The translations under genes were made by a program, and so were the position numbers. A DNA stretch of 32,000 nucleotides from contig CP066689.1 of assembly GCA_016432445.1 (NCBI GenBank), positions 210,001 through 242,000 on the forward strand, given 5' to 3'. This document shows, piece by piece, positions 11,750 to 30,885 of the stretch; the stretch's first letter is position 1; each line of letters begins with the position of its first letter. The notes under the pieces are model-generated. The model searched no databases and was not told the DNA's origin. It was given only the letters and a program-made list of their open reading frames with translations. This stretch comes from Candidatus Saccharimonadota bacterium (GTDB lineage Bacteria > Patescibacteriota > Microgenomatia > UBA1406 > GWC2-37-13).

Positions 11750-11884
11750 ATGAAACGTACTTATCAGCCAAAAAAGGGAAAAAGAATGAAAAAACATGGG
11801 TTTTTGAAAAGAATGAAAACTCATGATGGAAGAAATGTTATAAAAAGAAGAAGAAATAAAGGGAGAAAAAAATTAACAGTATAA
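11750..11884 (+). CDS. rpmH: 50S ribosomal protein L34
   Basis: Hand translation: [44 protein letters not shown], which matches the L34 family pattern. It is absent from the ORF track because it is under 60 aa. CATAAT (11738-11743) lies 6 nt upstream of the ATG. Confidence 0.9.
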
Positions 11885-12773: not shown

Positions 12774-13265
12774 ATGGATAAAGCACAAACAATTAAAAAA
12801 GAAGCTGAGGAGCTTTTGGGAAAAATGATTGATAATTTTGAGGTTGAGATTGAGGAAGACAATGGAGTTTATCAGGTGATTATCAAAACTGAAGAAAACG
12901 CTCCAACTGTGATTGGCAGACATGGAGAGACTATAAGAGCAATTCAAAAGATACTTGAGGTTGTTTTATACAAAACACTGGGTGAATCAGTACCTCTTCT
13001 TGTGAATGTTAACGATTATCGTGAAAAGCAAAATCAAAGATTAGAGAGTCTGGCTGCTCAGATGGCTGAAAAAACGCAAAGTGCAAAAAGAGCGACACAA
13101 ATGCGCGGTCTTTCCTCTTATGAACGGAAAGTTATTCATGAGTATATAACCACAAATTACCCGAATTTGACTACTTACTCAGTCGGCGAGGGAAGGGATA
13201 GATATTTAGTTGTCGATATGAAAGGTAATGAACCTAAACAAAATGAAAACGGTATGGAAGAATAA
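12774..13265 (+). CDS. khpB: Jag/KhpB-like RNA-binding protein (KH + R3H domains)
   Basis: GRHGETIRAIQ (KH GxxG) and LSSYERKVIHEYI (R3H). Conserved position after yidC. Confidence 0.75.
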   Translation: MDKAQTIKKEAEELLGKMIDNFEVEIEEDNGVYQVIIKTEENAPTVIGRHGETIRAIQKILEVVLYKTLGESVPLLVNVNDYREKQNQRLESLAAQMAEKTQSAKRATQMRGLSSYERKVIHEYITTNYPNLTTYSVGEGRDRYLVVDMKGNEPKQNENGMEE

Positions 13266-13547: not shown

Positions 13548-16500
13548 ATGGTAAATACGCCTGTGGCCGAAAGATCAACAGCTGGGATAAGAGAAGGCGT
13601 GGTGGATATAAAAATCCCCCTGGCAGAAGTTTTGGGGCCAAAAAATGAAGCAGAATTGCTAAAGCTTTTGAAAAGTCTAGAAATAGAAGCAAAAAACGCT
13701 AAAGTTGCCGCCAAACAAGAACAAAATAAAAAAAATAATGTTATTTCAATTAATAAAGGAGAAGAAAATAAGGGAGATGAAAAAAGTCTTAAGTTAGTAG
13801 AAAGTTCAGTTAAGCAAATTATTATTGCCTGCAATAATAATCCCAATCTTATTCCATCAAATTTGTCCGAAGCTAATCGTCATATGCTTGGTAATTTGAT
13901 GTTTCGGTTAAGAAACGTAGATCAGATTAATCCATCAACTTCTCCTTACATTTATGAGATTATCCAAAAGGCCATGAATAATCAGGCCAATCCATTGGAG
14001 ATATTATCAAAAGATGATTTGAAGTTTTTAGCGGCAGCTGATGAATATCTTCATCGACAAATACAAGATGTCATGACTGCTGCGGCCAGCAGAGCCGGTA
14101 TTGATCAAAAGACAATAGACCATTTTAAAACTGAGACAGTGCCTCCTAAAGTAACTGTTGATTCAGTAATTAATAGTCGTTTCGAACAAGAAGAGGGTAG
14201 TGCCGAATGGCTTCAGCGTCAGGAAAGAGGGATAAGTGATTATTATGATCTAAAAGAACCAAAGGAGGTACGTCTGTTAACAGCATTGTATTCAAATGAA
14301 GGTTTTGGCAAGTATATAGCTGAGACTATTAGGCAAACCATCAGTGAAGTTGGTGAAGCAGATAGAGCTTTATTGGGTAGAACTGTTAGTAAAAAAATCG
14401 AAGAGGACATGGTGCTTCTTTTCAGTAAAGTTTTCCGTAAAGCTGATGAATCAATGCCTCACGAGTTTTGGGATGAGATCGTTAAAGAAGGTTTTTATTC
14501 TTCAATTGAGATGACTTTTCACAATATGAAAAATGAGATCATCAAAAGAGGCGAGTACATGGAAAAATTGATGGCAAATCTTAAATATAATAATCAGCCT
14601 TTACCGACAGAGTTAGATGATTTAACAAAAATAGATTTTTATAGACGTTTCTCAGTTGAAGAATATCAGCCTCAAGATATAAAACGGAAAGATGGTACGA
14701 TTAAAACAGATTATGTAAAAAGAGTAGTTCCTTCGCCTGGATTTCAAAAAAGCAAAGTAAACGAGTTCACAAGAGCGCTTCAGGTTCTTATAGATCAGGA
14801 AGCAGATTTTAGAAAATATGGTCATAATGTAAGAGCTTTATTTTATAAACCAGGAGGTGAGGGAGGCTTCTGGAACTCTTTAGCACAATATGCTAATGAA
14901 TTTCCAGCTGTAGATCTTGACTCAATGACTTTTTTGCCAGATAGTGATATTTTTATGAGTGCGGCTCGTCTTTATACAAAATATTTAGAGGAGGATTTCG
15001 CGGTAAAAGACTGGGTTCATGATGCCAATATGTTTGCTAATGGCTTTCAAAGTACTAGAACTACCATTGAAGAAAATATTTTAGCAACCTTAAAAAGACA
15101 GTATGGAAAAGATATTAAAACAGAAGAATGGAGATTAAGAAGAGCCATGAATATGGGTGTGGCTATAGCCCGGGGAATCTTGATGACTGAGCCTGAGATT
15201 GCCGCCTGGGCTCTTCCTAGCATGAAGCGGGCTAAAGGTATGGCTCCAACTTTCGTTAGCTATTATCTTAATGACAATACGGCTTTAAGCACTCTTAATC
15301 CTCTTCATCATTTTTTAAGATGGCAGGCAGACGTAATCTTACAGCATAATGTGGCTTTTTTCCCGGTTGACGGGCCGACACCCAAGTTTACTGAAAAAGC
15401 TGATCACACTAAGTTGTGGGACTTAGCAGAAAAATATAGAGAGACTTTTTATGACGGTGGAAATGTTCTTAGTAAGGAAACTTTAGGCCGTAGGATTTTT
15501 TTGGAGGTTCTGCCAAATTTTGGAAAGGTAGGCAGTATTTTTACCCGTGCCGGCTGGAGAAATGAGAATGCCATTGATGGTTGGCTTGTTCACGATGGTA
15601 ATAAAACGAAGTTAGATTATCTTAAGTCATGGAAATCTTTAGAAAACATTGGTTTTGAACCTTTGTACTCTTTTGCCACTGCTATTGATGATAATCTTAA
15701 GAGCGCTTTAACTAATCCGGAATCAATGCTGGATATGGAAGCTATTGAAAAAGGAGTGGAGGAGGAAATTACCAAAGGTAAATATCAAAGACGGGAAAAA
15801 GATCAAAAAATTGAGGAGGCAGTTGAAGCTAAAAAAAAGGAGATAACTGAAAAAATAGCGGAAAGAGAAAAAATTTTTAAATACATATTTAATAAATATA
15901 TCCTTGATCCTTCTCAAAGACATCTTGATACCTTAAATTTGGATGTTCCTGATCCAGCTTATGAAGCTGAGGTTGCCAAACAAAGGGTAATCGCCGAGCA
16001 AACAGTAGATGGAAAGATTAAACAAGGAGATCAGTTTGTTAAGGACGACCGTGAAAATGAGATTATTAAAGAAACATATAGTCGTATCCTTTATAAAGGA
16101 TTAGCTGGAGTATTACGTGACCGTATGCCTGCAAAATTTCTCAGGATAGACCGTGATCGTAACTCGGTTGATGGGGAAAGCCGTTGGAAAAAAGTAAGAA
16201 ATGCTTTAATAGGTAAGACTGGATGGCCGGCAAAAGGTGTTAACGCAATGCAAGAGATGGCTATTCCATATGATCAGGCTATGAAAGATTTAGCTTTGGT
16301 TGAAACTCAACTTAGAGTGCATACTTCAGAAAAAATGAAAAAACATCTAGAGCAATATACTAATAATCCTTTAAGTTATGAGTTACATAGCGCTAAAATT
16401 TATGATTACATTCTTGATGATCGAACGATTGAGGAAGTTTTAAATGAGAATCTAGGAGATGAAACTGAGATTACTGCTGCAGAGAAGACTGCCCGTATAA

Positions 16501-17399
16501 AACGTGCCAAAGATGTTTTAAGATTAACCAATGAATTATATTTACATAATGAAAATTTTAAAGAAGTTGAAGGAATAAAATTAAATGGTCAACCAGTTCA
16601 TAAAAGTTTTCTTGATACGTTTGCTGACCAGATGATGGATAAATCGAAACATTTTCCTTTTGCCTTAGCTACTGACGAAGTGGATACTTACTTTTTAGCT
16701 TATAGGGCAGCCGGTCCCAGCATTATAAGAAGAGCTTTGGGTGATACTTCGCAAGTTGAGCAAGTAGTGTTGAAAGAAACTATTAATTATCTTGGTCTTT
16801 TTTCAAACTTAGCAATTACACCAAGCGATGAAAATTTTCATAAATTAGGAGCTCCGCTTAAAAAAATTTGGGACACAATGAATAGTATTCATGGTACAGA
16901 AATAGCCAATGAGCTAGTACACCATTTAGCCGCTTTAGCTCCGGCTTACTTTAAAACAGATACAGACGCCCGTTTGCTTTGGATGAAACTGGCGAGAGTT
17001 GGGACATATAAGTCAGTAGCGGCCAAGATAGCCGGTAGAAAATTAGGGATTTGGGAATGGGATGTTGAAAAAGGCGATAAATGGGCAATGACTTTATCAG
17101 ATTTAGGGATTCAGCCAAAAGAACCTTATCAGAGTGGTAAAGCTCCTTATAAAAAAGAAGATGTTAAAATACGTATTCCTTTTACTAACAGGAAAATTAA
17201 GATAGGCGAAAAAAAAACTCTTCGAAAACCGGATTTTAAATACTCAATTAAGAAGTTTAGAGAAGATTTTGGTGCAACAGGAAAACATATTGCTGCAGAA
17301 CTATTTATGAAGTGGGGTCCGATATTAATTTTTTTCCTGTTGTATCAGTTTATTACTAAGGCGTTTAAAGAGGCAACCGGTGAGGGTCAAAAAGGATAA
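13548..17399 (+). CDS. 1283-aa hypothetical protein with a single C-terminal TM helix (orphan)
   Basis: Long uninterrupted ORF with a charged coiled-coil-like stretch (EAIEKGVEEEITKGKYQRREKDQKIEEAVEAKKKEITEKIAEREK) and a C-terminal WGPILIFFLLYQFIT helix. I found no Walker A and no catalytic motif. Confidence 0.7.
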   Translation: MVNTPVAERSTAGIREGVVDIKIPLAEVLGPKNEAELLKLLKSLEIEAKNAKVAAKQEQNKKNNVISINKGEENKGDEKSLKLVESSVKQIIIACNNNPNLIPSNLSEANRHMLGNLMFRLRNVDQINPSTSPYIYEIIQKAMNNQANPLEILSKDDLKFLAAADEYLHRQIQDVMTAAASRAGIDQKTIDHFKTETVPPKVTVDSVINSRFEQEEGSAEWLQRQERGISDYYDLKEPKEVRLLTALYSNEGFGKYIAETIRQTISEVGEADRALLGRTVSKKIEEDMVLLFSKVFRKADESMPHEFWDEIVKEGFYSSIEMTFHNMKNEIIKRGEYMEKLMANLKYNNQPLPTELDDLTKIDFYRRFSVEEYQPQDIKRKDGTIKTDYVKRVVPSPGFQKSKVNEFTRALQVLIDQEADFRKYGHNVRALFYKPGGEGGFWNSLAQYANEFPAVDLDSMTFLPDSDIFMSAARLYTKYLEEDFAVKDWVHDANMFANGFQSTRTTIEENILATLKRQYGKDIKTEEWRLRRAMNMGVAIARGILMTEPEIAAWALPSMKRAKGMAPTFVSYYLNDNTALSTLNPLHHFLRWQADVILQHNVAFFPVDGPTPKFTEKADHTKLWDLAEKYRETFYDGGNVLSKETLGRRIFLEVLPNFGKVGSIFTRAGWRNENAIDGWLVHDGNKTKLDYLKSWKSLENIGFEPLYSFATAIDDNLKSALTNPESMLDMEAIEKGVEEEITKGKYQRREKDQKIEEAVEAKKKEITEKIAEREKIFKYIFNKYILDPSQRHLDTLNLDVPDPAYEAEVAKQRVIAEQTVDGKIKQGDQFVKDDRENEIIKETYSRILYKGLAGVLRDRMPAKFLRIDRDRNSVDGESRWKKVRNALIGKTGWPAKGVNAMQEMAIPYDQAMKDLALVETQLRVHTSEKMKKHLEQYTNNPLSYELHSAKIYDYILDDRTIEEVLNENLGDETEITAAEKTARIKRAKDVLRLTNELYLHNENFKEVEGIKLNGQPVHKSFLDTFADQMMDKSKHFPFALATDEVDTYFLAYRAAGPSIIRRALGDTSQVEQVVLKETINYLGLFSNLAITPSDENFHKLGAPLKKIWDTMNSIHGTEIANELVHHLAALAPAYFKTDTDARLLWMKLARVGTYKSVAAKIAGRKLGIWEWDVEKGDKWAMTLSDLGIQPKEPYQSGKAPYKKEDVKIRIPFTNRKIKIGEKKTLRKPDFKYSIKKFREDFGATGKHIAAELFMKWGPILIFFLLYQFITKAFKEATGEGQKG

Positions 17400-17439
17400 G
17401 ATTGAATTTGAGTAAAGATTAGGTTATTCTAAAGATAGA

Positions 17440-18216
17440 ATGAAAAAAATTATTTTCCTTTGCCTCTTCTTATTATTAACAGCTTCTTTTTTAATTTTCT
17501 CTCCAAGCAAAATATATGCCTTGGGTTTGTCTAATAATGCAGCAGAGAATATGTCAGGAATAAGCTGCGGTATTCCTGATTCATCTATTAACAGATGTTG
17601 TGCTCCTTTGTCATTTAAAGTTGATCTTAGTTTTGATAATAAATTTTTAGATGTTCCTTTAACTATATTTCGAGCCCCTCTTGAGTTTTTAGGCAATGGA
17701 ATTGTTATGGGGTTAATTGATATTTACGGTAAGGTTGAGAGATCAATAACAAAGACTAATGGATGCATTAAAGGTATCCCAAGTACAGAGAATCCGGCTG
17801 ATCCAAACTGTATTTGTAGCGATGCTAATTCCTCATCTTTAAAATCCATTTCTTATTTATGTGAGAAAATAGTTTCTCCAGATGAGAAAAAGCAGTGTAA
17901 AGCCTGTATTATTGGCGGTACTGCCAATACAAAAGCAGGTATCTGGACAGCAATAGGTTGTGTTCGGGGTGACTTAAGTTCATTTATTCAAGACACTGTG
18001 CTTAGCTGGGGTTTAAGATTGGCCGGTTTAATTGCTCTGCTTTGTATTATTTATTCGGCTTTTAGACTACAGGTTTCAAGGGGTAACCCTGAGGCTATTA
18101 AAAAAGCTCAGGAAATGCTTACTTCCTGCATAATGGGATTACTGCTTATTATCTTTTCAGTTTTTATATTAAGAATAATCGGAGTTGATATCTTAAGAAT
18201 CCCGGGTTTCGGTTAA
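17440..18216 (+). CDS. Secreted Cys-rich domain fused to a VirB2/TrbC-like two-TM pilin module
   Basis: Signal peptide MKKIIFLCLFLLLTASFLIFSPSKIYA. About 10 Cys in residues 40-175. The C-terminus is TM, SRGNPEAIKKAQ, TM, matching the pilin-like paralogs. Confidence 0.65.
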   Translation: MKKIIFLCLFLLLTASFLIFSPSKIYALGLSNNAAENMSGISCGIPDSSINRCCAPLSFKVDLSFDNKFLDVPLTIFRAPLEFLGNGIVMGLIDIYGKVERSITKTNGCIKGIPSTENPADPNCICSDANSSSLKSISYLCEKIVSPDEKKQCKACIIGGTANTKAGIWTAIGCVRGDLSSFIQDTVLSWGLRLAGLIALLCIIYSAFRLQVSRGNPEAIKKAQEMLTSCIMGLLLIIFSVFILRIIGVDILRIPGFG

Positions 18217-18239
18217 TAGGAATTGACTTACTCAGATTT

Positions 18240-18283
18240 AGGATTAGGATGTATTCTTTTGAGGATGAGGATGTATTCCTTTG
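18240..18283. repeat. 22-nt tandem duplication straddling the stop codon of the VirB6-like gene
   Basis: AGGATTAGGATGTATTCTTTTG / AGGATGAGGATGTATTCCTTTG (2 mismatches). Confidence 0.7.
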
Positions 18284-19959
18284 ACACTTTCATCAAACCC
18301 TGGTAAGAACTTTAAGAATTTGCCTAATCCGGCTGTATTAGCACCGTAAACTATGGATGAGTATTGATGAAGTATGCCCATAGCTCCGCCTGTCCCAGTA
18401 CCGGCTCCGCCAAAGAAGACTCCAAGGTTAAGACCCAAAGGCAAGCCTTTGACACCCATAAACTCTTTTATTAGCTTAACAAGTTCAGGTACCATAAAAA
18501 TAATAGCCATCCCGAGAACTATGGCAAAATTTTTAGGATTAAGGCCATATAAAAATGGAGGTTGCCAAACATTGTAGTTGGAATTAATCGTAACATTTAT
18601 TAATACCCGCGCCGTAACCATAATAAGAATGACAGCGGGAAAAACAATAATCTCGGCCAGCAAATTTTTAAACCAATAAGAAAAACCGCCTTTTCCGGGA
18701 ACCGCTTCAAAAAGCATAAAAATGGGCGCAAATATAATCATAAGAATGATTTTAAGATAAGTCATAAGCAACAAAAAGAAAATCCTAAATAATAGCAAAA
18801 GCATAGTAAAAAATATAAGTAATCCTAGTATCCAGCCGGCGCCGTAAACAAGACTCACGATTAAAGCTAAACCAACACCTATTGCTAAAAGAGGTATGCC
18901 AAATATAATACCTCTAGGTAAAGAACCAAGAGAGTTACCTAAAACATCTAAATTATTTAATATTGATGGTAAACCAACAAAGTCATTGAGCTTCATATAG
19001 TCCTTTAGTAAAGGAAAGCCTAAGAAAAGCAAACCTAAAAGTCTAACGCCATCATTTATCCATGATGGCAAAATCTCAGCCAGCCCCTGTCCTAACTGAA
19101 ATAAATGAATAAATCCTCCAAATATAGGAATTCCTGTCTCCCAGCTTTTAATGGGAAACATACTGTCCCAGATAGTGCCAAACTGAGCCGCTGTGTATTG
19201 GTTTTGCAGTTGAGACTCAATTAAAGTAGGGTCGGCTTTGGCTAAAACAGAGATGCCCAAAACAATAATTACATACATAAAATCAATTAAAAATCCAGCT
19301 ATGGCAAAGGAAAAAGTAATGTAAATAAGGGATAAAACAATTTTGGGAAGAGCGCTTTCAACCGAGATTACAGTTTGAGGGTTAAGTTTCATCCTAAACA
19401 TAACCATAAAACCGATAAGTATAATTACCACGACTAATATTAAATAAGCCACATCACGCATAACTTTCCAGATGTTCATAAGCGGTCTTATAGCCGAGAA
19501 ACCAACGCCTTCAGCCGCAAAAGCTTGAGGCACTATCCCGGCATTCTGCAATCCCGAGTATGTCCAGTAAACGCCTGAGGCGGGAGGATTGGTAAAGGGA
19601 AAAGTAATTAACCCGCTGGCTTTTCCCAACAAACTATTTTTAAAATTTTTATCAGCATTACCTTGATTATCATTGCAATTTTCTCCTAGGAGCTTACACA
19701 AAAGCGCTTGATGGATTTGAGATAAAGCTTTAGTTTCTTTTTTTTCGGCAAGTTTAGGGTCATTAAATGATTCATAAAGTTTTTGCCGCTCAGTTTTTAA
19801 AGGGTTAACAGAAGCTGTTTTTTTATCACTTGTTAGGTATAAAAAAAGATTGATAACAGCAAACAAAACAATAACAACAATGGTTATCTTTTGAAGTGTA
19901 ATTAAGCCTTTTTTTATCCCGCCGAGCATAACATTCATTGTATACTTCTTCGCTTTCAA
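18244..19959 (-). CDS. Polytopic membrane protein, VirB6/TrbL-like (tentative)
   Basis: About 570 aa: an N-terminal TM, a roughly 100-aa loop, many further hydrophobic segments and a Gly-rich tail (FFGGAGTGTGGAMG). The ORF start at 19959 is TTG. ATG alternatives are 19938 and 19929; the latter lies 7 nt downstream of TACAAT (19937-19942, minus strand). The call rests on topology and context, not on a motif. Confidence 0.45.
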   Translation of the reverse strand: MKAKKYTMNVMLGGIKKGLITLQKITIVVIVLFAVINLFLYLTSDKKTASVNPLKTERQKLYESFNDPKLAEKKETKALSQIHQALLCKLLGENCNDNQGNADKNFKNSLLGKASGLITFPFTNPPASGVYWTYSGLQNAGIVPQAFAAEGVGFSAIRPLMNIWKVMRDVAYLILVVVIILIGFMVMFRMKLNPQTVISVESALPKIVLSLIYITFSFAIAGFLIDFMYVIIVLGISVLAKADPTLIESQLQNQYTAAQFGTIWDSMFPIKSWETGIPIFGGFIHLFQLGQGLAEILPSWINDGVRLLGLLFLGFPLLKDYMKLNDFVGLPSILNNLDVLGNSLGSLPRGIIFGIPLLAIGVGLALIVSLVYGAGWILGLLIFFTMLLLLFRIFFLLLMTYLKIILMIIFAPIFMLFEAVPGKGGFSYWFKNLLAEIIVFPAVILIMVTARVLINVTINSNYNVWQPPFLYGLNPKNFAIVLGMAIIFMVPELVKLIKEFMGVKGLPLGLNLGVFFGGAGTGTGGAMGILHQYSSIVYGANTAGLGKFLKFLPGFDESVKGIHPHPQKNTS

Positions 19960-20003
19960 AATGCAAGGGAAGAAAATGCTGTAAATGGTACAATTATTTT
20001 AGA

Positions 20004-20783
20004 ATGAATATCTTAAAAAGATTTTTAATCTTATCTTTTTTTATTATTTTTCTTTTTTGGGGTTTTCTATCGTCAACTTATGCCGAAAATGATAATTCTT
20101 CATCAGGTTCAACAATAAAAGAGTTTCTTAAAATCTTTTTTCCTTCTTCCTCAGGTTTTCAAAATAACATCTCTCAGTTATCAGCTGATTCTCCAAATAA
20201 CAATCAATTACAACCTCAAGAGGCAATCTCTGTTAAGAGTTTAAGGGAACTTTTCTCAGAAATTGAAAAAAAAGTTCAGATACCGGCAAGAATCATTGAA
20301 GGAGTCATGCTAGTTGAGTCGCCAGGTTTACTTAATCCAGAGTCACCTAATTTTTTAACTGATGAGCAAGTGCAGGAATATTCCCGACCTGGTGCAGTAA
20401 TTCCTGGGTGCCGCGCTAATGCCTGCTCAGCCATGGGGCCAATGCAGATGACAACAGGGATTGACAACAGCGGTTCAAGCAGCTGTTCAGACTGCGGTCT
20501 AAACGTATGTCCTAATGCTTGGGCAGGTTTTGGAGACAGTGTTAATACTTTTGGTGGCTACTCTCATTTATCTAATCCTTGCAATCTTCGCGATAACATC
20601 TATGCAGCCGCGGCTAAACTGAAAGATAATAGCGGTGCCGGCTCAGGAGTGTGGACAAAAGAACAGGTTTACCGTGCCGCTGAAAGATATTATGGTTCAT
20701 GCAGTGATAAATACCGTTATGAACGGTTGGATAACAAAACATATTGCGAGTTTTTGTGGTGGTATTATACCGGCCAGGATTAA
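20004..20783 (+). CDS. Secreted lytic transglycosylase-like (SLT/VirB1-like) Cys-rich protein
   Basis: Signal peptide MNILKRFLILSFFIIFLFWGFLSSTYA. SLT-like motifs VMLVES (Glu-Ser) and AMGPMQMT (GxMQ), then IYAAAAKL and AAERYYG. The ATG at 20004 is preferred over 19938. Extended -10 TGgTACAAT at 19986-19994. Confidence 0.55.
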   Translation: MNILKRFLILSFFIIFLFWGFLSSTYAENDNSSSGSTIKEFLKIFFPSSSGFQNNISQLSADSPNNNQLQPQEAISVKSLRELFSEIEKKVQIPARIIEGVMLVESPGLLNPESPNFLTDEQVQEYSRPGAVIPGCRANACSAMGPMQMTTGIDNSGSSSCSDCGLNVCPNAWAGFGDSVNTFGGYSHLSNPCNLRDNIYAAAAKLKDNSGAGSGVWTKEQVYRAAERYYGSCSDKYRYERLDNKTYCEFLWWYYTGQD

Positions 20784-20786
20784 TTT

Positions 20787-21260
20787 ATGGAAAAAAACCG
20801 TATTTATATAATTATTTTTGTCCTTCTTTTTATCCTGGTGATTTTATTGGGTACGGTTAATCTGTTTTCTTCAACTAAGAAAAATGAACAGTCTTTAATT
20901 TCAATTTCAAGTCCGGTTACTCCAACCACCAACTTAGTTTTTCCATCAAATTTTCCCTATGTTTCACCGGCTGTTACATCTGAATTAGCGCCATCAACAA
21001 CAATTTCTTCCACAAAAGTGATAACGGCATTAGAGCTCGCATATCCTTTAAAATATGAAAACTTAATTATTGATTATATTCAGATTAGAAAGCAGATAAT
21101 TATTTTTTATCCAAAAGAAAAACAGCAAGCTGAAACAGTATTTAAGCAATTTTTAAACCAGTATCAAACAAATGAGCAAGAATTTGCAGGTATGAAAATT
21201 GATTACATTGGTTTAACCCGTGATCCTAACGAACCGGTTCCCGGATCTTTACTTCAATAA
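20787..21260 (+). CDS. N-terminally anchored small protein with a shared C-terminal ~60-aa domain
   Basis: N-terminal TM IYIIIFVLLFILVILLGTV and an S/T/P linker. The C-terminal LAYPLKYENLIIDY..IIIFYPKEK..FKQFL..KIDY aligns with the C-termini of 22530..22997 and 21254..22537. Confidence 0.6.
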   Translation: MEKNRIYIIIFVLLFILVILLGTVNLFSSTKKNEQSLISISSPVTPTTNLVFPSNFPYVSPAVTSELAPSTTISSTKVITALELAYPLKYENLIIDYIQIRKQIIIFYPKEKQQAETVFKQFLNQYQTNEQEFAGMKIDYIGLTRDPNEPVPGSLLQ

Positions 21261-22537
21261 TAGATTATTTGCAAGTGTCTTATCCAGGATGGATCTTCAA
21301 CTCCGTAGGACAATAAAAAATTTTGAAACTCTAGGTTTCCTTCATTTGATTGAGCACTTGATATTTCAACAATAACTTTATTGATACTAATATCATTCCT
21401 TATACTAAAATACTGGCCACTATAGGGTGTTTGTTGAGCTATCATTTGTCCAACTAATTGTTCTTTGCGGATAAACTCTTCTTCTTCTTTATTGGTAATT
21501 AAACCGCTATGTTCTGAAGGATAAATATTGTTAGAGCGTTCATTTTTTAAAACACTGATAATATAGCTTATTTGTTCAAGAACTTGAGGGTGAACCAGAA
21601 CTGCTCCGTGTCCATCAAAGCCGCCTTTAATCATGGTTCTTTGTTCTTTTAGTTTGGCTGATTCATCTGACTCTTTGGCATCAAGCATGCTATTTATCCG
21701 CTGATATTCTTCAAGCTTTTCATCAACATATTTTGATATGGGAAACTCTACCCATTGTTCCATGGAAAATAGAGTTTGCATCCTTTTACCGCCTATGACC
21801 TGAGTTGAGGCGAGCGCATAAGCATATTTTGGCGCAACAACTAAATCATCAAATGAAGCAAATGATATGTATCTCACTCCTTGGCTGACTAGATCATTTA
21901 CTTCATTTTCTACTCTAGAATCAATATCTTCTTCCTGAGCTCTTTCTAAATAAAATTGACCTGCTTCGCCGCCTATTATGGGGGCAAGCCAAGTGTCGGT
22001 GGGAGTAGGAATAATATCAGCTCCTTTTAAAGCTCCATCTAAGGATATGACGGCAGCCGTTTTGCCGGCATGTTTTTTAGCCAACTCATGAGCTAAATAT
22101 CCTCCCTGGCTGTGGCCGATAATGACAAACTTATCTTCAGGAAAGTTTTCTTCGTACCAATTCATTAATTTATCCATGTTCTCAACGCTTGTATATGGAT
22201 GTTGAGTTGAGTCTTGATGATCATAATGTTCACCAAGCCGAGGGTTATTGTCATTTACGCGGTAAGAGATATCTAAAACATCATATTCGTCAAATCCGGC
22301 CGAGTAAATTGCTTGTTCTTTTAAATATTTAAAACTTTCCTGATCATCAGCCGTTGCCCCAAGACCGGGGATAATTATAAATTTTAAACAAGGTTCACTA
22401 TTTCTTCTTTTCCATGTCCCGTCCCAATGCTCAACCCATAATTCACGTGTCCATTCTTTAGGTAAAAAAGCTGCGGCAGCTGTTAATCCTGCGGCTTGTA
22501 AAAATTGTCGGCGGGATAACCGCCATTGTTCACTCAT
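21254..22537 (-). CDS. Tat-exported alpha/beta hydrolase (lipase/esterase-like) with the shared C-terminal domain
   Basis: Twin-arginine signal LSRRQFLQAAGLTAAAAFL. Nucleophile elbow IIGHSQGG. C-terminal PYSGQYFSI..EGNLEFQNFL..WIRHLQIIYY. Confidence 0.7.
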   Translation of the reverse strand: MSEQWRLSRRQFLQAAGLTAAAAFLPKEWTRELWVEHWDGTWKRRNSEPCLKFIIIPGLGATADDQESFKYLKEQAIYSAGFDEYDVLDISYRVNDNNPRLGEHYDHQDSTQHPYTSVENMDKLMNWYEENFPEDKFVIIGHSQGGYLAHELAKKHAGKTAAVISLDGALKGADIIPTPTDTWLAPIIGGEAGQFYLERAQEEDIDSRVENEVNDLVSQGVRYISFASFDDLVVAPKYAYALASTQVIGGKRMQTLFSMEQWVEFPISKYVDEKLEEYQRINSMLDAKESDESAKLKEQRTMIKGGFDGHGAVLVHPQVLEQISYIISVLKNERSNNIYPSEHSGLITNKEEEEFIRKEQLVGQMIAQQTPYSGQYFSIRNDISINKVIVEISSAQSNEGNLEFQNFLLSYGVEDPSWIRHLQIIYY

Positions 22538-22997
22538 AGTTGATTACGAGCAAGTTTTTTCTTATCCATAATCTGTCTTGAATGCCATTTTTTTTCAAAA
22601 AAGCGTCAAACTCTTCATTGCCTTCTTTTTCTTTTGACTTAGGGATAGTGACTACATACTGAGCTTTATTGTAATCATTAATCATCTTGAAGTTTTTTCC
22701 TGAGTAAGGCAGAAGATTAAGCAACCGGCCAACCGCAGCTTCTTTTTCAACAATTGGAGACTCAGCTTTGTTTATTTCTTGAGCGCTTTTTTTATAATCC
22801 TGGTTTACAAAAGGAGCGTCAAAAGATAAGGGAGTTGGGGATAGTTTTGATGGAATAAAATCGGTAGGTATAACTGATTTACTATCATAAGAGTTTGATT
22901 TTTTAACATTTTGTTTTTGCAGTAAAGTAGTTACAATTATCAAGAAAATTGTCACGATTAAAAAAACAACAACTATGATTTTAATTTTATAATTCAT
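22530..22997 (-). CDS. N-terminally anchored small protein with the shared C-terminal domain
   Basis: N-terminal TM, then LPYSGKNFKMINDY..VVTIPKSKEKEGNEEFDAFL..WIRKNLLVINY. The start overlaps the upstream stop (ATGA), and there is an 8-nt overlap with the downstream gene. Confidence 0.6.
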   Translation of the reverse strand: MNYKIKIIVVVFLIVTIFLIIVTTLLQKQNVKKSNSYDSKSVIPTDFIPSKLSPTPLSFDAPFVNQDYKKSAQEINKAESPIVEKEAAVGRLLNLLPYSGKNFKMINDYNKAQYVVTIPKSKEKEGNEEFDAFLKKNGIQDRLWIRKNLLVINYE

Positions 22998-23788
22998 ATT
23001 TTTTTAATTGGGAAGGCATAAAACCAGGTAAAAGCTGAGACGCTTTTGATAATATTTTCCGGTTTTTCATCATTGCCGTCAGCATAACTGCAGTTATTTG
23101 GGTCTCTAATGCTAACACTTGAAGAATCAATATCGACATTATCAACCGTGAATGCGTGATCGATTCTTCGTGGCGTACTGCAGCTGGCGCAGGGGAAATC
23201 TTTAGAAGAGGCAATAATAAGATAACCCTGATCAAGATAATTTTTAGCTTGTTTAAGATCTAAAATTCCATTGAAAGCAAGGTTTTGTCCCACATGCATT
23301 CCTAATCCTTCAAACCAAGAACTGGAAAGAGCGTTTAGCAAATAGCTGGCATTATCTCCGCAGGTTCTCCATCCATTTTGCTGAAAAATTAAATCTACTT
23401 GAGGTGGAGAGAGTCCTATGCCAAAAGTAGATAAGATCATTGATAGTGAGGTTGGAGCACATCCGGCCGCGCCTAAATTACATATACTTTTCCACATAGT
23501 ATTACCTTGACAATAAAAAACAAAGCCGTTGCGTTTTTCTTTATTGTAAATAGAGGGATTAGGAGGATTAGAAGGATTAGGCAGTTGATCTTCGGGAATG
23601 TTTGAGGTTGATATTTCTCCTTTCGGAAAAAAAATTTTTAAAAATTCTTTAATAGTTTCTGCTCCATTACTCTTGCTTGATTCGCTGTCTGGTTGAGCAC
23701 GAACTGTAGTAGAGAAAGAAACTAATACTATTAATAAAATTAATATTATTTTACTCATATCGTTGACAAGAGATTTTTTTTTAGACAT
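22994..23788 (-). CDS. Secreted papain-like cysteine peptidase (Peptidase_C39-like / cell-wall hydrolase candidate)
   Basis: Signal peptide ending in TVRA. YCQGNTMW..GAAGCAPTSLSMIL (nucleophile Cys context). Later IDHAFTV (His) and IRDPN. Confidence 0.5.
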   Translation of the reverse strand: MSKKKSLVNDMSKIILILLIVLVSFSTTVRAQPDSESSKSNGAETIKEFLKIFFPKGEISTSNIPEDQLPNPSNPPNPSIYNKEKRNGFVFYCQGNTMWKSICNLGAAGCAPTSLSMILSTFGIGLSPPQVDLIFQQNGWRTCGDNASYLLNALSSSWFEGLGMHVGQNLAFNGILDLKQAKNYLDQGYLIIASSKDFPCASCSTPRRIDHAFTVDNVDIDSSSVSIRDPNNCSYADGNDEKPENIIKSVSAFTWFYAFPIKKI

Positions 23789-23791
23789 AAT
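23763..23791 (+). promoter_or_regulatory. Near-consensus sigma70-type promoter, leaderless geometry
   Basis: TTGACA (23763-23768), 17-nt spacer, CATAAT (23786-23791). The ATG at 23798 is 6 nt downstream. Confidence 0.6.
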
Positions 23792-23797
23792 GTTTTT

Positions 23798-26743
23798 ATG
23801 GCCGGCTTTTTTGATTTTATAAAAAAACCTAACTCACCTGCAACTCCAAATCAGCAGCCTGCCACTATGAGTCAGCCTCCTCAAGTTCCTTCACCGGTAA
23901 CTAATTCTCCTGCCTTGCCTCAAACTCCAACGCAGGAAGCTAACATGATGCTTCATTTTGACACTCATCAAAGCCTTCGGCAAGCTCCACCCTCCGTCAA
24001 GACTTCCGCGTCCGTTAAAACTCCGGCGGACAAGTCGGATGACAAGCCTGATGACAAACTTTCAAAGCCATCAATTAATCCTTTATCTCAAAATTTAAGC
24101 GGAGAAAAAAGAGTCAATATTGATGTTATGACCCATTTAACTCAACGTTCAAACCGCGCTTTTTTATCGGCTAACAGTAAAGCCAAAGAATTAAAAAATA
24201 GTTTTATTGACAGTGAACATATTCTTCACGGGTTATTGTCTGATGGAGAGATTTATAAATTGTTTATTGATCTTAAAATCCAGCCTCAGTTTATTGAGGA
24301 TGAACTTAACAAACTTTATCGTCGGGAGAATAACAATGCTTCTCCTCAAATGTCTCCAAGAGTTAAAAAAATTATTGACGATTCATTAGTAATTGCAAGA
24401 AAACTAGGTTTTGAGTTCATTTCACCTGAACACATTTTACTGGGTTTATATGAGGAAGGTGAAGGGGTAGGCGCTAGAGTATTAGTTAAATTAGGATTAA
24501 AAAAAGAAGATATTAATAAAAAGATATTGGGGAAGAAAGAAGGGTTGGAAGCTGATCAAAAAGAAGCTCAAAATAAGAAAAATGTTTTGGATCAATATAC
24601 TATAGATTTAACTGCAAAAGCCTCACAAGGGCTTCTGGATCCGGTTGTCGAACGGTCGGAGGTAATTGAGAGAGTGATCCATATTTTATCCAGAAGAACT
24701 AAAAACAATCCGGCCTTGGTTGGCGAGGCAGGCGTTGGTAAAACTGCTATTGTTGAAGGATTAGCGCAGAAAATAGTGTCTAAACAAGTACCTGATCCAT
24801 TGCTTAATAAGAAAATTTTACAGCTTGATCTTATGAGTATTTTGGCAGGCGCCTCTCATAGAGGTGAGTTTGAAGAAAGGATGAAAGATTTGATAGAACA
24901 AATTAAAGCCAGTCAGGGTCAGCTTCTCCTTTTTATTGATGAGATTCATAATATTGTAGGTGCCGGTTCATCTGGCGAAGGGTCACTTGATGCTTCAAAT
25001 TTTTTAAAACCAGCTCTGGCTCGTGGTGAAATACAGCTTATTGGAGCAACGACTTTAACAGAGTATCGGAAATATATTGAAAAAGATCCGGCTCTTGAGC
25101 GCCGTTTTCAACCAGTACTTGTGCCCGAACCCACCGAAGAGCAAGCTGTGAAGATGCTTAAAAGCATTAAAGATAAATATGAAGCCTTTCATAAAGTAAA
25201 AATTCCAGATGATGCTGTTAACGCGGCGGTTCGTTACTCTAAACGTTATATTGGTGACAGGTTTTTACCTGATAAAGCAGTGGATTTGATTGATGAGGCG
25301 GCCTCTGCTGTTAGGCTTCCATTAATTTCTTTGCCTGAAGAAATTAAGTCGATTGAAACCCGAGTAGCAGAATTGACTCAAGAGGCGGCGGAAGCTGAAA
25401 AAGCCTCTGATAAAGTTAAAGCAAGGATAATCCGTTCAAAAATTGATGATATCCAAGCTGATCTTAAAGAAAAGAAAGATCAATATAATGTAAAAAAAGC
25501 CCAAACAACAACCGAAATAACTGAAAATATTATTAAAGATATTGTTTCCCGCTGGACTGGAATTCCGGTTTCCAAGATTACAGGCAATGAAAAAGAAAAA
25601 TTAGCTTCGCTTGAAAGCATTATGCATAAAAGACTTATCGATCAGGAGACAGCTGTATCAGCTGTGGCCGCGGCAGTAAGACGCGGAAGAGCCGGCTTGA
25701 AATCAAATCAAAGACCAATTGGAAGTTTTGTTTTCTTAGGACCAACTGGTGTTGGTAAAACAGAACTGGCTAAAACTTTGGCTGATATTTTATTTGGTCA
25801 GGAAGAGGCCATGGTTAGATTTGATATGACTGAGTATATGGAAAAGCATGAAGTAGCTAAACTTTTGGGAGCTCCTCCAGGATATGTGGGTTATGAGGAG
25901 GGCGGGAAGCTAACTGAAGCTGTACGTCGCAGACCTTACTCGGTTGTCCTTTTTGATGAGGTAGAAAAAGCCCATCCGGATATTTTTAATATTCTTTTGC
26001 AGATTCTTGATGATGGACGATTAACTGATAATAAAGGTCATACAATTTCTTTTAAAAATACTGTTGTTATTTGCACTTCAAACATTGGGACGCAGGTAAT
26101 TCAGGATGAGCTTTTGAAGGAAAAGGATCTGGAGATTAAAGAAGAGACAGAAGAGGAAATTAAAAGAGATAAAGAAAAATATGAAGGAATTAAAGGAAAA
26201 GTAATGGCTGAATTAAAGAAATTTTTCAAACCAGAACTTATTAACCGTTTTGATGAGATAATTGTATTTGAACCTTTAAAATTTGTGCACATGATGGAAA
26301 TTGTAAAACTGCAGTTAAAAAGTGTAGGTAAGCTTCTGGAAGATCAAGATATTGGTTTTTCCTATACAGAGGCTGCGGTTAAAGAAATAGTTAGATCAGG
26401 ATTTGATCCTATTTATGGAGCGCGTCCATTAAAAAGAGCGATCCAAAAATTATTGGAAAATCCAGTTTCTACTTTGATAATTGAAGGCAAAATTAAAGCA
26501 GGTAATGTTTTGCATACTGATTTTGATGGAGATAACTTCATTTTTAATGTAGAACAAACAGAAATGCTGCCAGCAGATCAAGTCAAAAAAAATGAAATCA
26601 AAGAATTTGTGTGTAATGTTTGTCATCAAGAGTTTAAAACAGAGGTAAACCAGTCATCAACCGTAATTTGTCCTTATTGTACAGCCAAAAATATTAATGA
26701 AAAGAAAGCAGAGGAAAAAAAAGAAATAAATGTATTAAAATAA
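23798..26743 (+). CDS. Two-ring Clp/Hsp100 AAA+ ATPase (ClpC/ClpB-like) with N-terminal P/Q/S/T-rich extension and C-terminal zinc ribbon
   Basis: Clp_N repeats ([17 protein letters not shown]). Walker A GEAGVGKT and GPTGVGKT. Walker B LFIDEIH and [20 protein letters not shown]. Short middle domain of about 65 aa. C-terminal [16 protein letters not shown]. Confidence 0.85.
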
Positions 26744-26747
26744 AAAT

Positions 26748-27155
26748 ATGAATAACTATACGCCTATTAATGTAAAAAAAATTGAAGAAAAATTTGTTAA
26801 AGAGCAAAAAAAAGGCATAAACTTAGATACGATATTGCTTCTTATTGGAACCTTGCTGGCAGTTGCTTTAATCTTCATGCTTTTCATTCTTATTCAAAAG
26901 AAAATGCAGTCGAGTCAAGAAGCTTCTGTTATACCAACTATTGGTTCCCGTCCTAAACCAACATTAGTTAAGGAAAATGTTGTCTCCACTCCTTCAGCAG
27001 TGCCATCGATAGAAGTCACTAAAGTTCTAAGTATTACGCCATCATCAACAGTCTCAGCAACACCTCAAGCAACAGCTTCAGCTACGCCTACCTCTACACC
27101 TTCAGCTTTATTAACTAGTCCTACCGCTTCGCCGTCAGCGACTAAAACACCTTAA
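26748..27155 (+). CDS. N-terminally anchored S/T/P/A-rich surface protein
   Basis: TM ILLLIGTLLAVALIFMLFILI followed by the low-complexity tail SATPQATASATPTSTPSALLTSPTASPSATKTP. Confidence 0.55.
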   Translation: MNNYTPINVKKIEEKFVKEQKKGINLDTILLLIGTLLAVALIFMLFILIQKKMQSSQEASVIPTIGSRPKPTLVKENVVSTPSAVPSIEVTKVLSITPSSTVSATPQATASATPTSTPSALLTSPTASPSATKTP

Positions 27156-27161
27156 AATAAT

Positions 27162-27836
27162 ATGACGGATTTTCCCATACAGTCTTCAATATTTATTTTA
27201 CAGATAGCGGTACTTTATTTTGTTTCAAGAATAACAATTCAGGAAATTTTTCGTTTCTTTTACTTTTTTACTTCAAATCGAAAAATTATTTTTAGCTTGA
27301 TGTCTTTAGTGCTTCTTCCCGGAACAGCTCTTCACGAAATAGCTCATTTTATCATGGCGACTATTCTTATGATGAGAGTGAAAGAAGTAAAAATAATTCC
27401 TGAATGGGAAGGAAATTCTATTAAATTAGGTAGAGTACTTTATGAAAAAAAAGATGCGGTTAGAGGAATTATTGTAGGTATTGCTCCTATATTGGCTGGT
27501 ATTTTCTTTTTTTGGTTTGCAGCTCAGATAGGCCGCGATATTAACAATAATCTTGGATTAAATATCTTATTAGTTTATCTAATATTTATTATATCTAGCA
27601 CTATGTTTTCCTCAAAACAAGATCTTATAGATATTATTTTTACGATTCCTTTCTTCTTGGTTATTATAGGAGGCGCTTATATATTGAATATTCCTATTAT
27701 TAAGATAATACAGAATTTTTTACCAAAGTTGGATTCAGGTTTAGTTATTATCAACCGTTTTCTATTTTATTCTCTTGCTATTCATATAGTGATAATAGTA
27801 TCATTTAAAAGTTTCAAAAGAGTGTTAAAGAAATGA
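27162..27836 (+). CDS. Polytopic membrane protein with HExxH motif (putative zincin-like membrane metallopeptidase, DUF3267-like)
   Basis: LLPGTALHEIAHFIMA plus at least four further hydrophobic segments. Its stop overlaps the start of the next gene (ATGA). Confidence 0.5.
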   Translation: MTDFPIQSSIFILQIAVLYFVSRITIQEIFRFFYFFTSNRKIIFSLMSLVLLPGTALHEIAHFIMATILMMRVKEVKIIPEWEGNSIKLGRVLYEKKDAVRGIIVGIAPILAGIFFFWFAAQIGRDINNNLGLNILLVYLIFIISSTMFSSKQDLIDIIFTIPFFLVIIGGAYILNIPIIKIIQNFLPKLDSGLVIINRFLFYSLAIHIVIIVSFKSFKRVLKK

Positions 27837-28180
27837 ATAATATAGTAGCTCAAGGTTTAAAAATAGTTCCTTCAGTGGGTGCCGGAACACCTCAGCCTGC
27901 TTCATTGACATTAACTGGGCCGTTAAAGGGTATCAATACTATTGGTGATGTAGTCAACAGAATAAGCCAGTTTTTAATACCGCTGGCCGCAGTTATTTTA
28001 TTTATTGTTTTAGTTTATGGAGGTTATCAGTTTTTATTATCTCAAGGCAATCCTGAGAAAGTTAAATCTGCAAGGGCTATACTTACTGCCGGAGTAATAG
28101 GATTTATTCTGCTTATAATCTCATTTACTTTAGTAAAGCTTATATCTTTTATTTTAGGGCTGGATACAGGCATAATATAG
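27833..28180 (+). CDS. VirB2/TrbC-like small two-TM protein, paralog 4
   Basis: TM, SQGNPEKVKSAR, TM. 115 aa. Confidence 0.6.
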   Translation: MNNIVAQGLKIVPSVGAGTPQPASLTLTGPLKGINTIGDVVNRISQFLIPLAAVILFIVLVYGGYQFLLSQGNPEKVKSARAILTAGVIGFILLIISFTLVKLISFILGLDTGII

Positions 28181-28371: not shown

Positions 28372-29697
28372 ATGTTTTGGAGAAAAGAACCACCAATAGT
28401 TCTCTCGATCGGAGGCAGTTTAATAGTCCCCAATGGAGGCATAGATACGGAATTTTTAAGGAAACTTAATGCTTTTGTTAGAGAACAAGTAAAAAAAGGT
28501 AAACGTTTCTTTTTAGTTGCTGGAGGAGGAAAGATTGCTCGTCATTATCGTGATGCTGGAAAAGATGTGATTGGAGAAATGACTAATGAGGATTTGGATT
28601 GGTTGGCGATACATGTTACTCGCGTAAATGCCCATCTTTTAAGAACAATTTTTCAAGATATTGCTCATCCCCGTATCATTGAAAATTATGATAAAAGATT
28701 AATTAACTGGAAAGAACCGGTAGTAATCGGCGCTGGCTGGAAACCTGGATGGTCAACTGATTATGACGCAGTCCTTTTAGCTAAAGATTATGGTGCTAAT
28801 CTAATTGTAAATTTATCCAATATCGATTGGATTTACGATAAAGATCCAAATAAATATAAAGACGCTAAAATTATAAAAAAGCTTACATGGGAAGAAATGG
28901 AAGATTTAGTAGGTAATAAATGGATTCCAGGTTTAAATGCTCCTTTTGATCCTATAGCTACTCAGCTTGCAAAAAAATTAAATTTAACAGTGATTGTTAC
29001 CAATGGTAAAGATTTTGATAATTTAGAAAAAATCATAGAAGGAGATGTCTTTAAAGGTACTGTCATTTTACCTTATCATATTGATGCCAGTTTTTATGAT
29101 AGAGAGTATTACACAGGTCAAAAAGGCGCTTATCGTATAGCCAGAATGGGGTCAATGACTGGAAGAATTATTCATGCTATCTCTAATTTTTATCGGGCTC
29201 TCTTAATTAAAATATTTTTAAACCCAAAAAACTGTCTTGATATCGGTTGTGGTACAGGTAGATTAGTTAAATACTTAAGAAAATTGGGAATAGATGCTTA
29301 TGGAGTAGAGTTGTCAAAGGAAGTTTTAGAATTAGCGGATAAACAAGTTAAGCCTTTTTTAAAACTAGGTCACATTACTGATTTGCCATATCAGGATAAT
29401 CAGTTTGATTTAGTAACGACTTTTGATGTTTTGGAACATATTGAGCGGGGTAAAATAAAGGAGGCAATTGAGGAAAGCGTTAGAGTTTCCAGAAAATATA
29501 TTCTTCACAAAATTTATACTAAAGAAAATTTATGGATAAGTTTGATGCATGCTAAAGATTTTTCCCATATATCAGTTTTTACTAAAGATTATTGGAAAAA
29601 ACTATTTAGTGAAATTAGCCATGTATCGGTATTAAAAAATTCTTTTTTCCGACTGCCTTCATTTATTGAAACAATATTTCTTCTTAAGAAAGATTAA
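28372..29697 (+). CDS. pyrH: Fusion protein: archaeal-type UMP kinase (N) + class I SAM-dependent methyltransferase (C)
   Basis: Residues 1-233: VLSIGGSLIVP..FLVAGGGKIAR..GWKPGWSTDYDA..KDPNKYKDAK, as I recall for archaeal PyrH. Residues about 280-441: motif I CLDIGCGTGRLV and DLVTTFDVLEHI. Confidence 0.75.
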   Translation: MFWRKEPPIVLSIGGSLIVPNGGIDTEFLRKLNAFVREQVKKGKRFFLVAGGGKIARHYRDAGKDVIGEMTNEDLDWLAIHVTRVNAHLLRTIFQDIAHPRIIENYDKRLINWKEPVVIGAGWKPGWSTDYDAVLLAKDYGANLIVNLSNIDWIYDKDPNKYKDAKIIKKLTWEEMEDLVGNKWIPGLNAPFDPIATQLAKKLNLTVIVTNGKDFDNLEKIIEGDVFKGTVILPYHIDASFYDREYYTGQKGAYRIARMGSMTGRIIHAISNFYRALLIKIFLNPKNCLDIGCGTGRLVKYLRKLGIDAYGVELSKEVLELADKQVKPFLKLGHITDLPYQDNQFDLVTTFDVLEHIERGKIKEAIEESVRVSRKYILHKIYTKENLWISLMHAKDFSHISVFTKDYWKKLFSEISHVSVLKNSFFRLPSFIETIFLLKKD

Positions 29698-30778: not shown

Positions 30779-30862
30779 GGAGGGTTGGCCGAGTGGTTTA
30801 AGGCGCAAGTCCCGAAAACTTGTGGGCGAAAGCCCTCACAGGTTCGAATCCTGTACCCTCCG
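30779..30862 (+). tRNA. tRNA-Ser(CGA), type II with long variable arm, no encoded CCA
   Basis: Folded by hand. Acceptor GGAGGGT/ACCCTCC. 3-bp D stem GCC/GGC. Anticodon stem CAAGT/ACTTG with loop CCCGAAA. Variable arm TGGGCGAAAGCCCTC. T arm ACAGG-TTCGAAT-CCTGT. Discriminator G. Confidence 0.85.
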
Positions 30863-30885
30863 CTTAGATTTAGTAGAATATAGTT

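Follow-up and report, generated by a model that had tools for sequence, protein, structure and literature searches.

The block of genes at positions 13548–28180 of the DNA analysed here (32,000 nucleotides of contig CP066689.1, positions 210,001 to 242,000 of the forward strand; this whole stretch is called the window below) encodes a series of proteins, designated A to L, with the composition of the envelope part of a type IV secretion system (T4SS). With moderate confidence, we read this block as the envelope module, dispersed and particular to its lineage, of the T4SS-like pilus machine already known from Patescibacteria; the VirB4 and TrsD components of this machine would be encoded at a separate locus. 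The island is chromosomal, lies between rpmH-yidC-jag and recF, and is specific to Roizmanbacteria-like Microgenomatia. Its pilins, SLT-like enzyme and cysteine peptidase, together with a polytopic protein whose top structural matches are of the VirB6 type, make up a T4SS envelope set. In this respect an earlier reading of the same DNA made from its letters alone (the sequence-only reading), which had seen here those T4SS parts of Gram-positive type that belong to the envelope, was borne out: the block encodes VirB2-like pilins, a pair of glycosidase-like and peptidase wall hydrolases, and a polytopic protein that weakly resembles VirB6.

The proteins of the window carry locus tags of the HYW86_ series, are encoded on a contig of 1,103,789 bp and belong to a metagenome-assembled genome (MAG) assigned to Candidatus Roizmanbacteria, class Microgenomatia, of the Patescibacteria or Candidate Phyla Radiation (CPR). 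Each open reading frame (ORF) was analysed with Pfam and NCBIfam hidden Markov models (HMMs), hydropathy, PDB profile search, Foldseek and hhalign. Related loci were collected by scanning the GTDB species representatives with the family of the 571-aa protein C; 80 loci of the 231 species with matches and four further loci gave a set of 84 (individual loci are denoted by L and a number). Counts of gene neighbourhood refer only to those loci whose flank is long enough. All ORFs listed in the sequence-only reading were found in their places, and the topologies given there agree with hydropathy, namely one C-terminal transmembrane segment (TM) in A, a signal peptide and two TMs in B, and seven TMs in C.

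VirB2-like pilins and the coupled candidate membrane protease

Five ORFs of the window had been singled out in the sequence-only reading as sharing one TM-loop-TM design, and this observation proved accurate. Four of them pass the gathering score of the Pfam family T4SS_pilin (PF18895, 26.6 bits): the last gene of the block, L (27833–28180, plus strand, 34.8 bits), and three further VirB2-like pilin genes that form an array on the minus strand outside the block (404–781, 785–1147 and 1149–1445; 33.3, 30.5 and 29.0 bits). The fifth, B (17440–18216, plus strand), falls slightly under this score with its residues 186–246 (24.1 bits), and NCBIfam gave for it a weak match to the Mbov_0395 pilin-like conjugal transfer protein. 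All five modules can be aligned as leader-TM-loop-TM, both among themselves and with R388 TrwL/VirB2, and both hydropathy and this alignment place a short charged loop between the two hydrophobic helices. Of the 84 related loci, 70 contain a homolog of L according to BLAST.

Protein B is built as the sequence-only reading described it: a signal peptide is followed by an extracellular Cys-rich head (13 Cys in the protein) and by a C-terminal two-TM VirB2-like module. It is a candidate for a minor or tip pilin, or for an adhesin.

The gene preceding L encodes K (27162–27836, plus strand), a membrane protein with six TMs that is weakly M50B-like (Peptidase_M50B, 19.9 bits with a cut-off of 26). 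Its HExxH motif is situated within a TM segment, and its overlap with the start of L through ATGA was read directly, so that the coupling of an HExxH membrane protein to a pilin gene, proposed earlier, holds. The motif is kept in 23 of 23 K homologs; in 24 of 26 cases the next gene, of equal orientation, encodes a pilin, and the two genes overlap in 19. The recurrence of this order, often with overlapping genes, suggests a pilin-processing role for K as a candidate metalloprotease.

The pilin array at 404–1445 adjoins genes for a Fic/DeoR-type helix-turn-helix protein and an ATP-dependent DNA ligase (1449–2588 and 2610–4403). Further 5', outside the window, we observed genes for a 573-aa TM protein (HYW86_01100), a DUF5657 protein, a DUF2130 protein, a holin-like protein and a Cys-rich secreted protein of 541 aa. 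The array and all these neighbours are kept in the closest relative, L104.

Putative wall hydrolases and a shared module

Three proteins of the block are putative hydrolases, and two of them would correspond to the glycosidase and peptidase activities of VirB1-like proteins. Protein D (19938–20783, plus strand; called as 259 aa) is N-anchored, Cys-rich and SLT-like. Its previous designation as a lytic transglycosylase stands at the level of the family: three of nine homologs match Pfam SLT (PF01464, best E 2.4e-4), and the catalytic-type Glu (E106), the GPMQ motif and the N..D..Y..A motif are invariant in the alignment of the nine homologs. The designation does not extend to Pfam evidence for the window protein itself, which has no match, and a PDB search with D gave none either. 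Protein H (22994–23788, minus strand), the putative peptidase partner, is secreted or anchored and was rightly described as papain/C39-like, with 31.9 bits for Peptidase_C39_2 (PF13529, cut-off 24). Its homologs have lengths of 250–430 aa and in most loci adjoin a small protein with the module described below. In one relative (L039, 2337–4199) a single protein of 620 aa comprises this module at its N-terminus, an SLT-like domain and Peptidase_C39_2. Such a fusion mirrors the bifunctional VirB1/PrgK-type hydrolases of Gram-positive T4SS.

The third hydrolase, F (21254–22537, minus strand), had been noted as a GHSQG hydrolase exported by the twin-arginine translocation (Tat) pathway. We found a Tat signal (TAT_signal, 23.5 bits, cut-off 22.7) and an alpha/beta-hydrolase domain (Abhydrolase_1, 35.5 bits) besides the GHSQG motif, in full accordance with this description. 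It should be mentioned that the Tat signal is here attached to an alpha/beta-hydrolase in a CPR genome.

Several anchored proteins and enzymes of the island have an unannotated module of about 70 aa in common. Proteins E (20787–21260, plus strand) and G (22530–22997, minus strand) are small and N-anchored, as stated previously, and both are matched by an HMM of this module constructed from the family of about 150-aa proteins (E 1.9e-10 for E and 1.5e-13 for G); the same HMM matches residues 336–408 of F. In E and G the module comes directly after the anchor at the N-terminus, and in F it occupies the C-terminus; C39-like and SLT-like proteins encoded by relatives (L024, L031, L039, L079 and L080) begin with it. 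Its consensus is roughly LP.xS.DF.i.Ys......v.lk.p...a...f..wL...g. Pfam has no match to the module and finds no domain in E. The module may be a common docking module. The family of G, with 81 members in 56 loci, is the most conserved module protein next to C. We also considered the small anchored proteins as VirB8-like, on the basis of a weak HMM match to PrgL; the match is confined to the TM helix and is therefore spurious.

Protein C, a candidate VirB6

Protein C (18244–19959, minus strand; 564 or 571 aa depending on the start; HYW86_01185) is a candidate divergent VirB6-like channel or platform, and its family counts 3,891 representatives at E ≤ 1e-3. The sequence-only reading had called it a polytopic VirB6/TrbL-like protein. 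The first part of this label is confirmed by seven predicted TMs; the second is without support from VirB6 HMMs, and the resemblance in fold and profile is weak. The AlphaFold2 (AF2) model of C is helical, with a predicted local distance difference test (pLDDT) value of 76. When this model was compared by Foldseek with 350,542 PDB chains, the top four were DotA and TrwI/VirB6 (E 0.17–0.7, probability 0.47–0.63); a PDB profile search with C gave no sequence match.

Comparison of C with a profile of nine plasmid VirB6 sequences by hhalign produced one local match of 36 columns (E 0.023), in which the invariant P412..W429 of the C family is set on the invariant P181..W199 of VirB6. PrgH of pCF10 aligns at the same P..W motif of C, and the EAIP..SWW motif of this PrgH/VirB6 protein resembles the invariant EA(I/V)PGK..FSYW of C. 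The VirB6/TrwI protein of R388 (PDB 7o3v, 8rtd), which furnishes the best structural matches, is likewise polytopic and helical and aligns with C at the invariant Pro and Trp. However, C is 1.6 times longer, with a TM at its N-terminus and a helical ectodomain in which two Cys are invariant, and the TM-scores are 0.19 (query-normalised) and 0.34 (target-normalised), with E values of 0.4–0.7. Taken together, it is plausible but unproven that C is a very divergent VirB6, as judged from the model and the aligned motif.

As first listed, the ORFs of C and D overlap by 22 bp, because both were taken from upstream TTG starts; the starts chosen by the gene callers (564 aa for C and 259 aa for D) leave a divergent intergenic gap of 65 bp.

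Gene order in related genomes

The order of genes around the island is conserved across about 80 species. Typically it runs DUF2298, valS, rpmH, yidC, jag, A, B, C (on the opposite strand), a protein of about 150 aa with an anchor, the C39-like peptidase, Clp, sometimes J, K, a pilin, an amino-acid-kinase/methyltransferase fusion and recF. A was found within 3.5 kb of C in 59 of 59 loci and B within 1.5 kb in 64 of 72; the corresponding figures are 36 of 42 for Clp (within 8 kb), 55 of 56 for jag (within 9 kb) and 28 of 37 for recF (within 10 kb). A-B-C form an invariant unit, present as a trio in essentially all of the approximately 80 species-level genomes, while D, E and F are confined to few. 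In five loci (L016, L042, L056, L057 and L093) Clp is displaced while A-B-C remain together. Protein identity among the relatives at this locus is 36–57%. Since conservation is equally strong in the housekeeping flanks and in the island, collinearity cannot prove functional coupling, and this applies especially to Clp.

These data bear on the possibility that the block is not one system at all. According to this explanation, it would consist of syntenic, origin-proximal envelope housekeeping genes (clients of YidC, wall hydrolases of growth and division, a chaperone), and the pilin-like proteins would have some membrane role outside a pilus. In line with it, everything between DUF2298 and recF, the housekeeping genes as well, is collinear in about 80 species; the position of A and B directly 3' of rpmH-yidC-jag on the same strand, the restriction of D, E and F to few genomes and the failure of C in all VirB6 HMM tests also agree with it. 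Against it stands the presence of five paralogous proteins from a family that was defined on T4SS pilins, four of them above the curated threshold. The combination of pilins, SLT-like enzyme, cysteine peptidase and polytopic C is that of a T4SS envelope, and a homologous pilin array and hydrolases are found within the essential T4SS cluster of a cultivated member of the phylum. We therefore consider it possible, though rather unlikely, that the genes serve unrelated envelope functions.

Location of VirB4

The absence of VirB4, VirD4 and relaxase from the block, pointed out already in the sequence-only reading, was confirmed, and we found none of the three in about 18 kb upstream in contigs of the source organism, in about 20 kb upstream in the closest relative, in 10 kb downstream, or in the 84 related loci (screened for VirB4 and VirD4 by P-loop and size and by phmmer with PrgJ, TrwK and PcfC). 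Hence C is not encoded near virB4 in the window, in its flanks or in any of the 84 loci. Two candidate positions were rejected. A published table for a relative, where VirB4 and a pilin are nine genes apart, gave the idea that VirB4 is located just past the three-pilin array, 5' of the window; L104 has there GH18, Peptidase_S11 and housekeeping genes. The Logan contigs of the source organism end at a point just past this array, and when metagenomes were scanned with the DUF2130 gene 5' of the window as anchor, two short contigs only were obtained. The large unlabelled ORFs past recF in related loci turned out to be elongation factor G, DnaG and similar proteins.

A separate location of VirB4 accords with a survey of the phylum by Quinonero-Coronel et al. 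(2025; PMC12102498). It reported VirB4 in 2,417 of 3,035 Patescibacteria genomes and described T4SS parts as dispersed in Microgenomatia, often far from virB4; VirB6 was 'scarce' in this class, 'suggesting extreme sequence divergence', pilin arrays were abundant and rpmH was a common neighbour. As the survey covered only 20 coding sequences on each side of virB4, the island is not described in it. In its Table S1, 41 of the 56 listed Roizmanbacteria are VirB4-positive, and so are eight of nine genomes in which we found the island (L015, L029, L044, L047, L053, L056, L078 and L096). In the ninth, L066, TrsD adjoins an ATPase that was scored in the published tables as a type IV coupling protein. 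TrsD and VirB4 are encoded by neighbouring genes in the island-bearing genome of L053 (GCA_000990565.1), and the same pairing occurs in a further Roizmanbacteria genome (GCA_000990445.1).

Several points count against our interpretation of the block as the envelope module of a VirB4-dependent machine. The island is tied to VirB4 by nothing but shared family types, synteny is uninformative on coupling, and for the genome of the window itself we infer VirB4 from relatives. Besides, 15 of the 56 Roizmanbacteria drafts were scored as VirB4-negative (PMC12102498), at least some of which represent assembly or threshold effects. The TrbL/VirB6 HMMs (PF04610, TrbL_2 and TrbL_3) match none of 40 members of the C family, nor, at E values up to 10, any of ten isolated C-terminal segments, and the structural and profile signals that relate C to VirB6 are each non-significant alone. 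Finally, A, the largest and most conserved gene of the island, has no counterpart in any described T4SS.

The Clp/Hsp100 ATPase and protein A

Protein I (23798–26743, plus strand) is an Hsp100/Clp ATPase that consists of a P/Q/S-rich N-extension, two Clp_N repeats, a D1 ring, a short middle domain, a D2 ring with ClpB_D2-small and a C-terminal zinc ribbon (CxxC..CxxC), the latter being present in 32 of 46 orthologs. No [ILVM]GF loop for docking to ClpP was seen. Walker A motifs are located at residues 309 and 648, and a P-loop screen revealed no other genuine P-loops in the block. It lies under every NCBIfam equivalog cut-off (ClpB 949.8 with a cut-off of 1232.1, ClpV 720.9 with 884.95, ClpA 728.4 with 993.15). 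Its earlier characterization as an atypical two-ring Clp/Hsp100 protein and the only NTPase of the block is therefore well founded.

A canonical ClpB paralog of 713 aa with a long middle domain, 47–50% identical to I, was found in the lineage on contig L016, and judging from these sequences the lineage may have two Hsp100 paralogs. It should be mentioned that L016 is 100% identical to L014 over 4.6 kb, from the C39-like gene through C and B, and diverges abruptly at about position 8349; beyond this break it carries SOD, trmD, yidD and the canonical ClpB, and it represents either a true rearrangement or a chimeric contig.

Protein A (13548–17399, plus strand; HYW86_01175; 1283 aa) had been described as an orphan with one C-terminal TM, and so it appeared here. 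Neither A nor its 38 homologs match Pfam or NCBIfam, a PDB profile search with the 39-member alignment gave no sequence match, and A has no Walker A motif. An AF2 model made from three sequences was unusable (pLDDT 43). As it lacks a signal peptide and has only one Cys and one TM, the latter at the C-terminus, A is probably a cytoplasmic tail-anchored protein. Protein J (26748–27155, plus strand), located between I and K, is N-anchored and S/T/P-rich, as reported before; it has one TM (residues 29–47), no family match and weak conservation, with homologs found by BLAST in 7 loci.

The sequence-only reading proposed a non-canonical apparatus based on pilins, for surface functions or secretion, without VirB4 and organised around the Clp-type ATPase, plausibly for contact between episymbiont and host rather than for conjugation. 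In its full form this proposal makes the island self-contained, with Clp/Hsp100 as a motor that would extract or recycle pilins or unfold substrates, as ClpV is used in the type VI secretion system (T6SS). Consistent with this, Clp is flanked by island genes, the C39-like peptidase on one side and K with its pilin on the other, and it still adjoins the pilin in the rearranged loci L034, L036, L043 and L052. Its zinc ribbon, short middle domain, lack of a ClpP loop and scores under all equivalog cut-offs are atypical, no VirB4 was found in the 84 loci, and the canonical ClpB paralog in the lineage means that the island Clp need not be the housekeeping chaperone. The proposal was not supported by the VirB4-positive scores of island-bearing genomes, which encode VirB4 and TrsD elsewhere, nor by the adjacency of Clp (36 of 42 loci), which is conserved no more strongly than that of the housekeeping genes and is lost in the five loci where A-B-C stay together. 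The two Hsp100 paralogs are not placed in one genome by any evidence, given that L016 is possibly chimeric, and to our knowledge no pilus driven by Clp has been reported. A motor role for Clp thus seems improbable to us. The same low probability attaches to the more specific version, a VirB4-independent pilus or contact apparatus in which the zinc-ribbon Hsp100 would be a dedicated ClpV-like motor extracting or recycling pilins, and tail-anchored A a cytoplasmic platform that couples this motor to C. Protein I probably functions as a chaperone or unfoldase peculiar to the lineage, its place in the island being a matter of synteny; it may also assist the island, for instance by handling pilins or A.

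That the block is a decayed integrated conjugative element, stripped of its ATPases and relaxase, is very improbable: its gene content does resemble the mating-pair-formation part of a Gram-positive integrative and conjugative element, but in about 80 species, with protein identities of 36–57%, it occupies one and the same chromosomal site and is flanked by the same housekeeping genes, all its genes are intact, the window contains neither an integrase nor a relaxase gene, nor any repeat boundary or step in G+C, and the tRNA-Ser gene at 30779–30863, being beyond recF and about 2.6 kb past the right end of the island, is no mark of an integration site.

Comparison with known systems

The closest parallels of the island are found within the phylum. 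The T4SS of Southlakia epibionticum (SEML1_0006-0019; Wang et al. 2023, PMC10633639) also includes paralogs of PF18895-type pilins and a wall peptidase together with a lysozyme-type hydrolase; the peptidase and lysozyme beside virB4, and the pilin array, are essential in this organism (PMC10633639, PMC12102498). A polytopic VirB6-type candidate, the lack of a relaxase and an origin-type chromosomal neighbourhood with rpmH are further features common to the island and the patescibacterial T4SS (PMC10633639, PMC12102498). Unlike the clusters described there, the island is located apart from VirB4, TrsD and VirB3, and its C is beyond the VirB6 HMMs. It has in addition an orphan of 1,200–1,400 aa (A), a pilin with a Cys-rich head (B), the module of about 70 aa on its hydrolases, a pair of HExxH protease and pilin, and an embedded zinc-ribbon Hsp100.

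The Prg/Pcf system of pCF10 (MPF-FATA class) is similar in its monoderm-type set of components and in the logic of a PrgK-like anchored bifunctional wall hydrolase. It differs in that it has no pilin and that VirB4 (PrgJ), VirD4 (PcfC) and relaxase are encoded in one operon, none of them matching ORFs of the island. By HMM and hhalign, D showed no significant match to PrgK, and A, C, D and K showed none to any protein of pCF10 or R388.

Protein I has in common with ClpV/TssH, ClpB, ClpC, ClpG and ClpK the two AAA+ rings, Clp_N and D2-small. Like ClpB and ClpV it has no ClpP loop, and like ClpV it is set among secretion-type genes. It is distinguished from all these proteins by scores under every curated cut-off, the short middle domain, the zinc ribbon and the low-complexity N-extension, and no T6SS genes accompany it.

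Neighbouring genes

On its left side the island is preceded, all on the plus strand, by rpmH (11750–11884; ribosomal protein L34 of 44 aa, read directly from the sequence), yidC (11897–12685; Pfam 60KD_IMP) and jag/KhpB (12774–13265; Pfam KH/R3H). rpmH stands directly 5' of yidC, with no rnpA between them, so that the neighbourhood of the island reads rpmH-yidC-jag ... recF. Neither dnaA nor dnaN is present in the window, and its cumulative GC skew has no turning point. On the right side, an ORF for a fusion of an amino-acid kinase (UMP-kinase-like) with a class I SAM (S-adenosylmethionine) methyltransferase (28372–29697) adjoins the last pilin of the island, as it does in most relatives. The gene for tRNA-Ser (CGA) mentioned above is the sole tRNA gene of the window. 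It should be noted that many GTDB representative records with this locus (L018–L097) are titled 'uncultured Gammaproteobacteria bacterium'; these are binchicken co-assembly MAGs and evidently mislabelled.

Possible working of the island and its significance

If the block is indeed the envelope module of a dispersed T4SS-like pilus machine, its products could act together in the following way. N-terminal anchors and the shared module of about 70 aa would keep SLT-like D, C39-like H and the alpha/beta-hydrolase F at the membrane, and these enzymes would open the wall locally, which is the role of VirB1. Protein C with its seven TMs would serve as a divergent membrane platform of the VirB6 type. 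The two-TM pilins would enter the membrane, possibly with the help of the neighbouring YidC, and L might be trimmed by the coupled HExxH protease K. The distant VirB4 would then polymerise the pilins on the platform formed by C, and B with its Cys-rich head would be a minor or tip subunit that contacts the host cell.

In the one patescibacterium that is genetically tractable, epibiotic growth requires the T4SS-like machine and its pilin array. In Microgenomatia, which are among the largest CPR classes, most T4SS parts beyond VirB4 and TrsD have not been found so far. The island offers concrete candidates for these gaps: a VirB6 beyond the reach of HMMs, hydrolases of the VirB1 type, a head-bearing pilin for contact with the host and a membrane protease coupled to a pilin. 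To these it adds two further conserved proteins, namely the orphan A of 1,283 aa and the Hsp100 with a zinc ribbon. Surveys restricted to the neighbourhood of virB4 under-count the T4SS content of such genomes.

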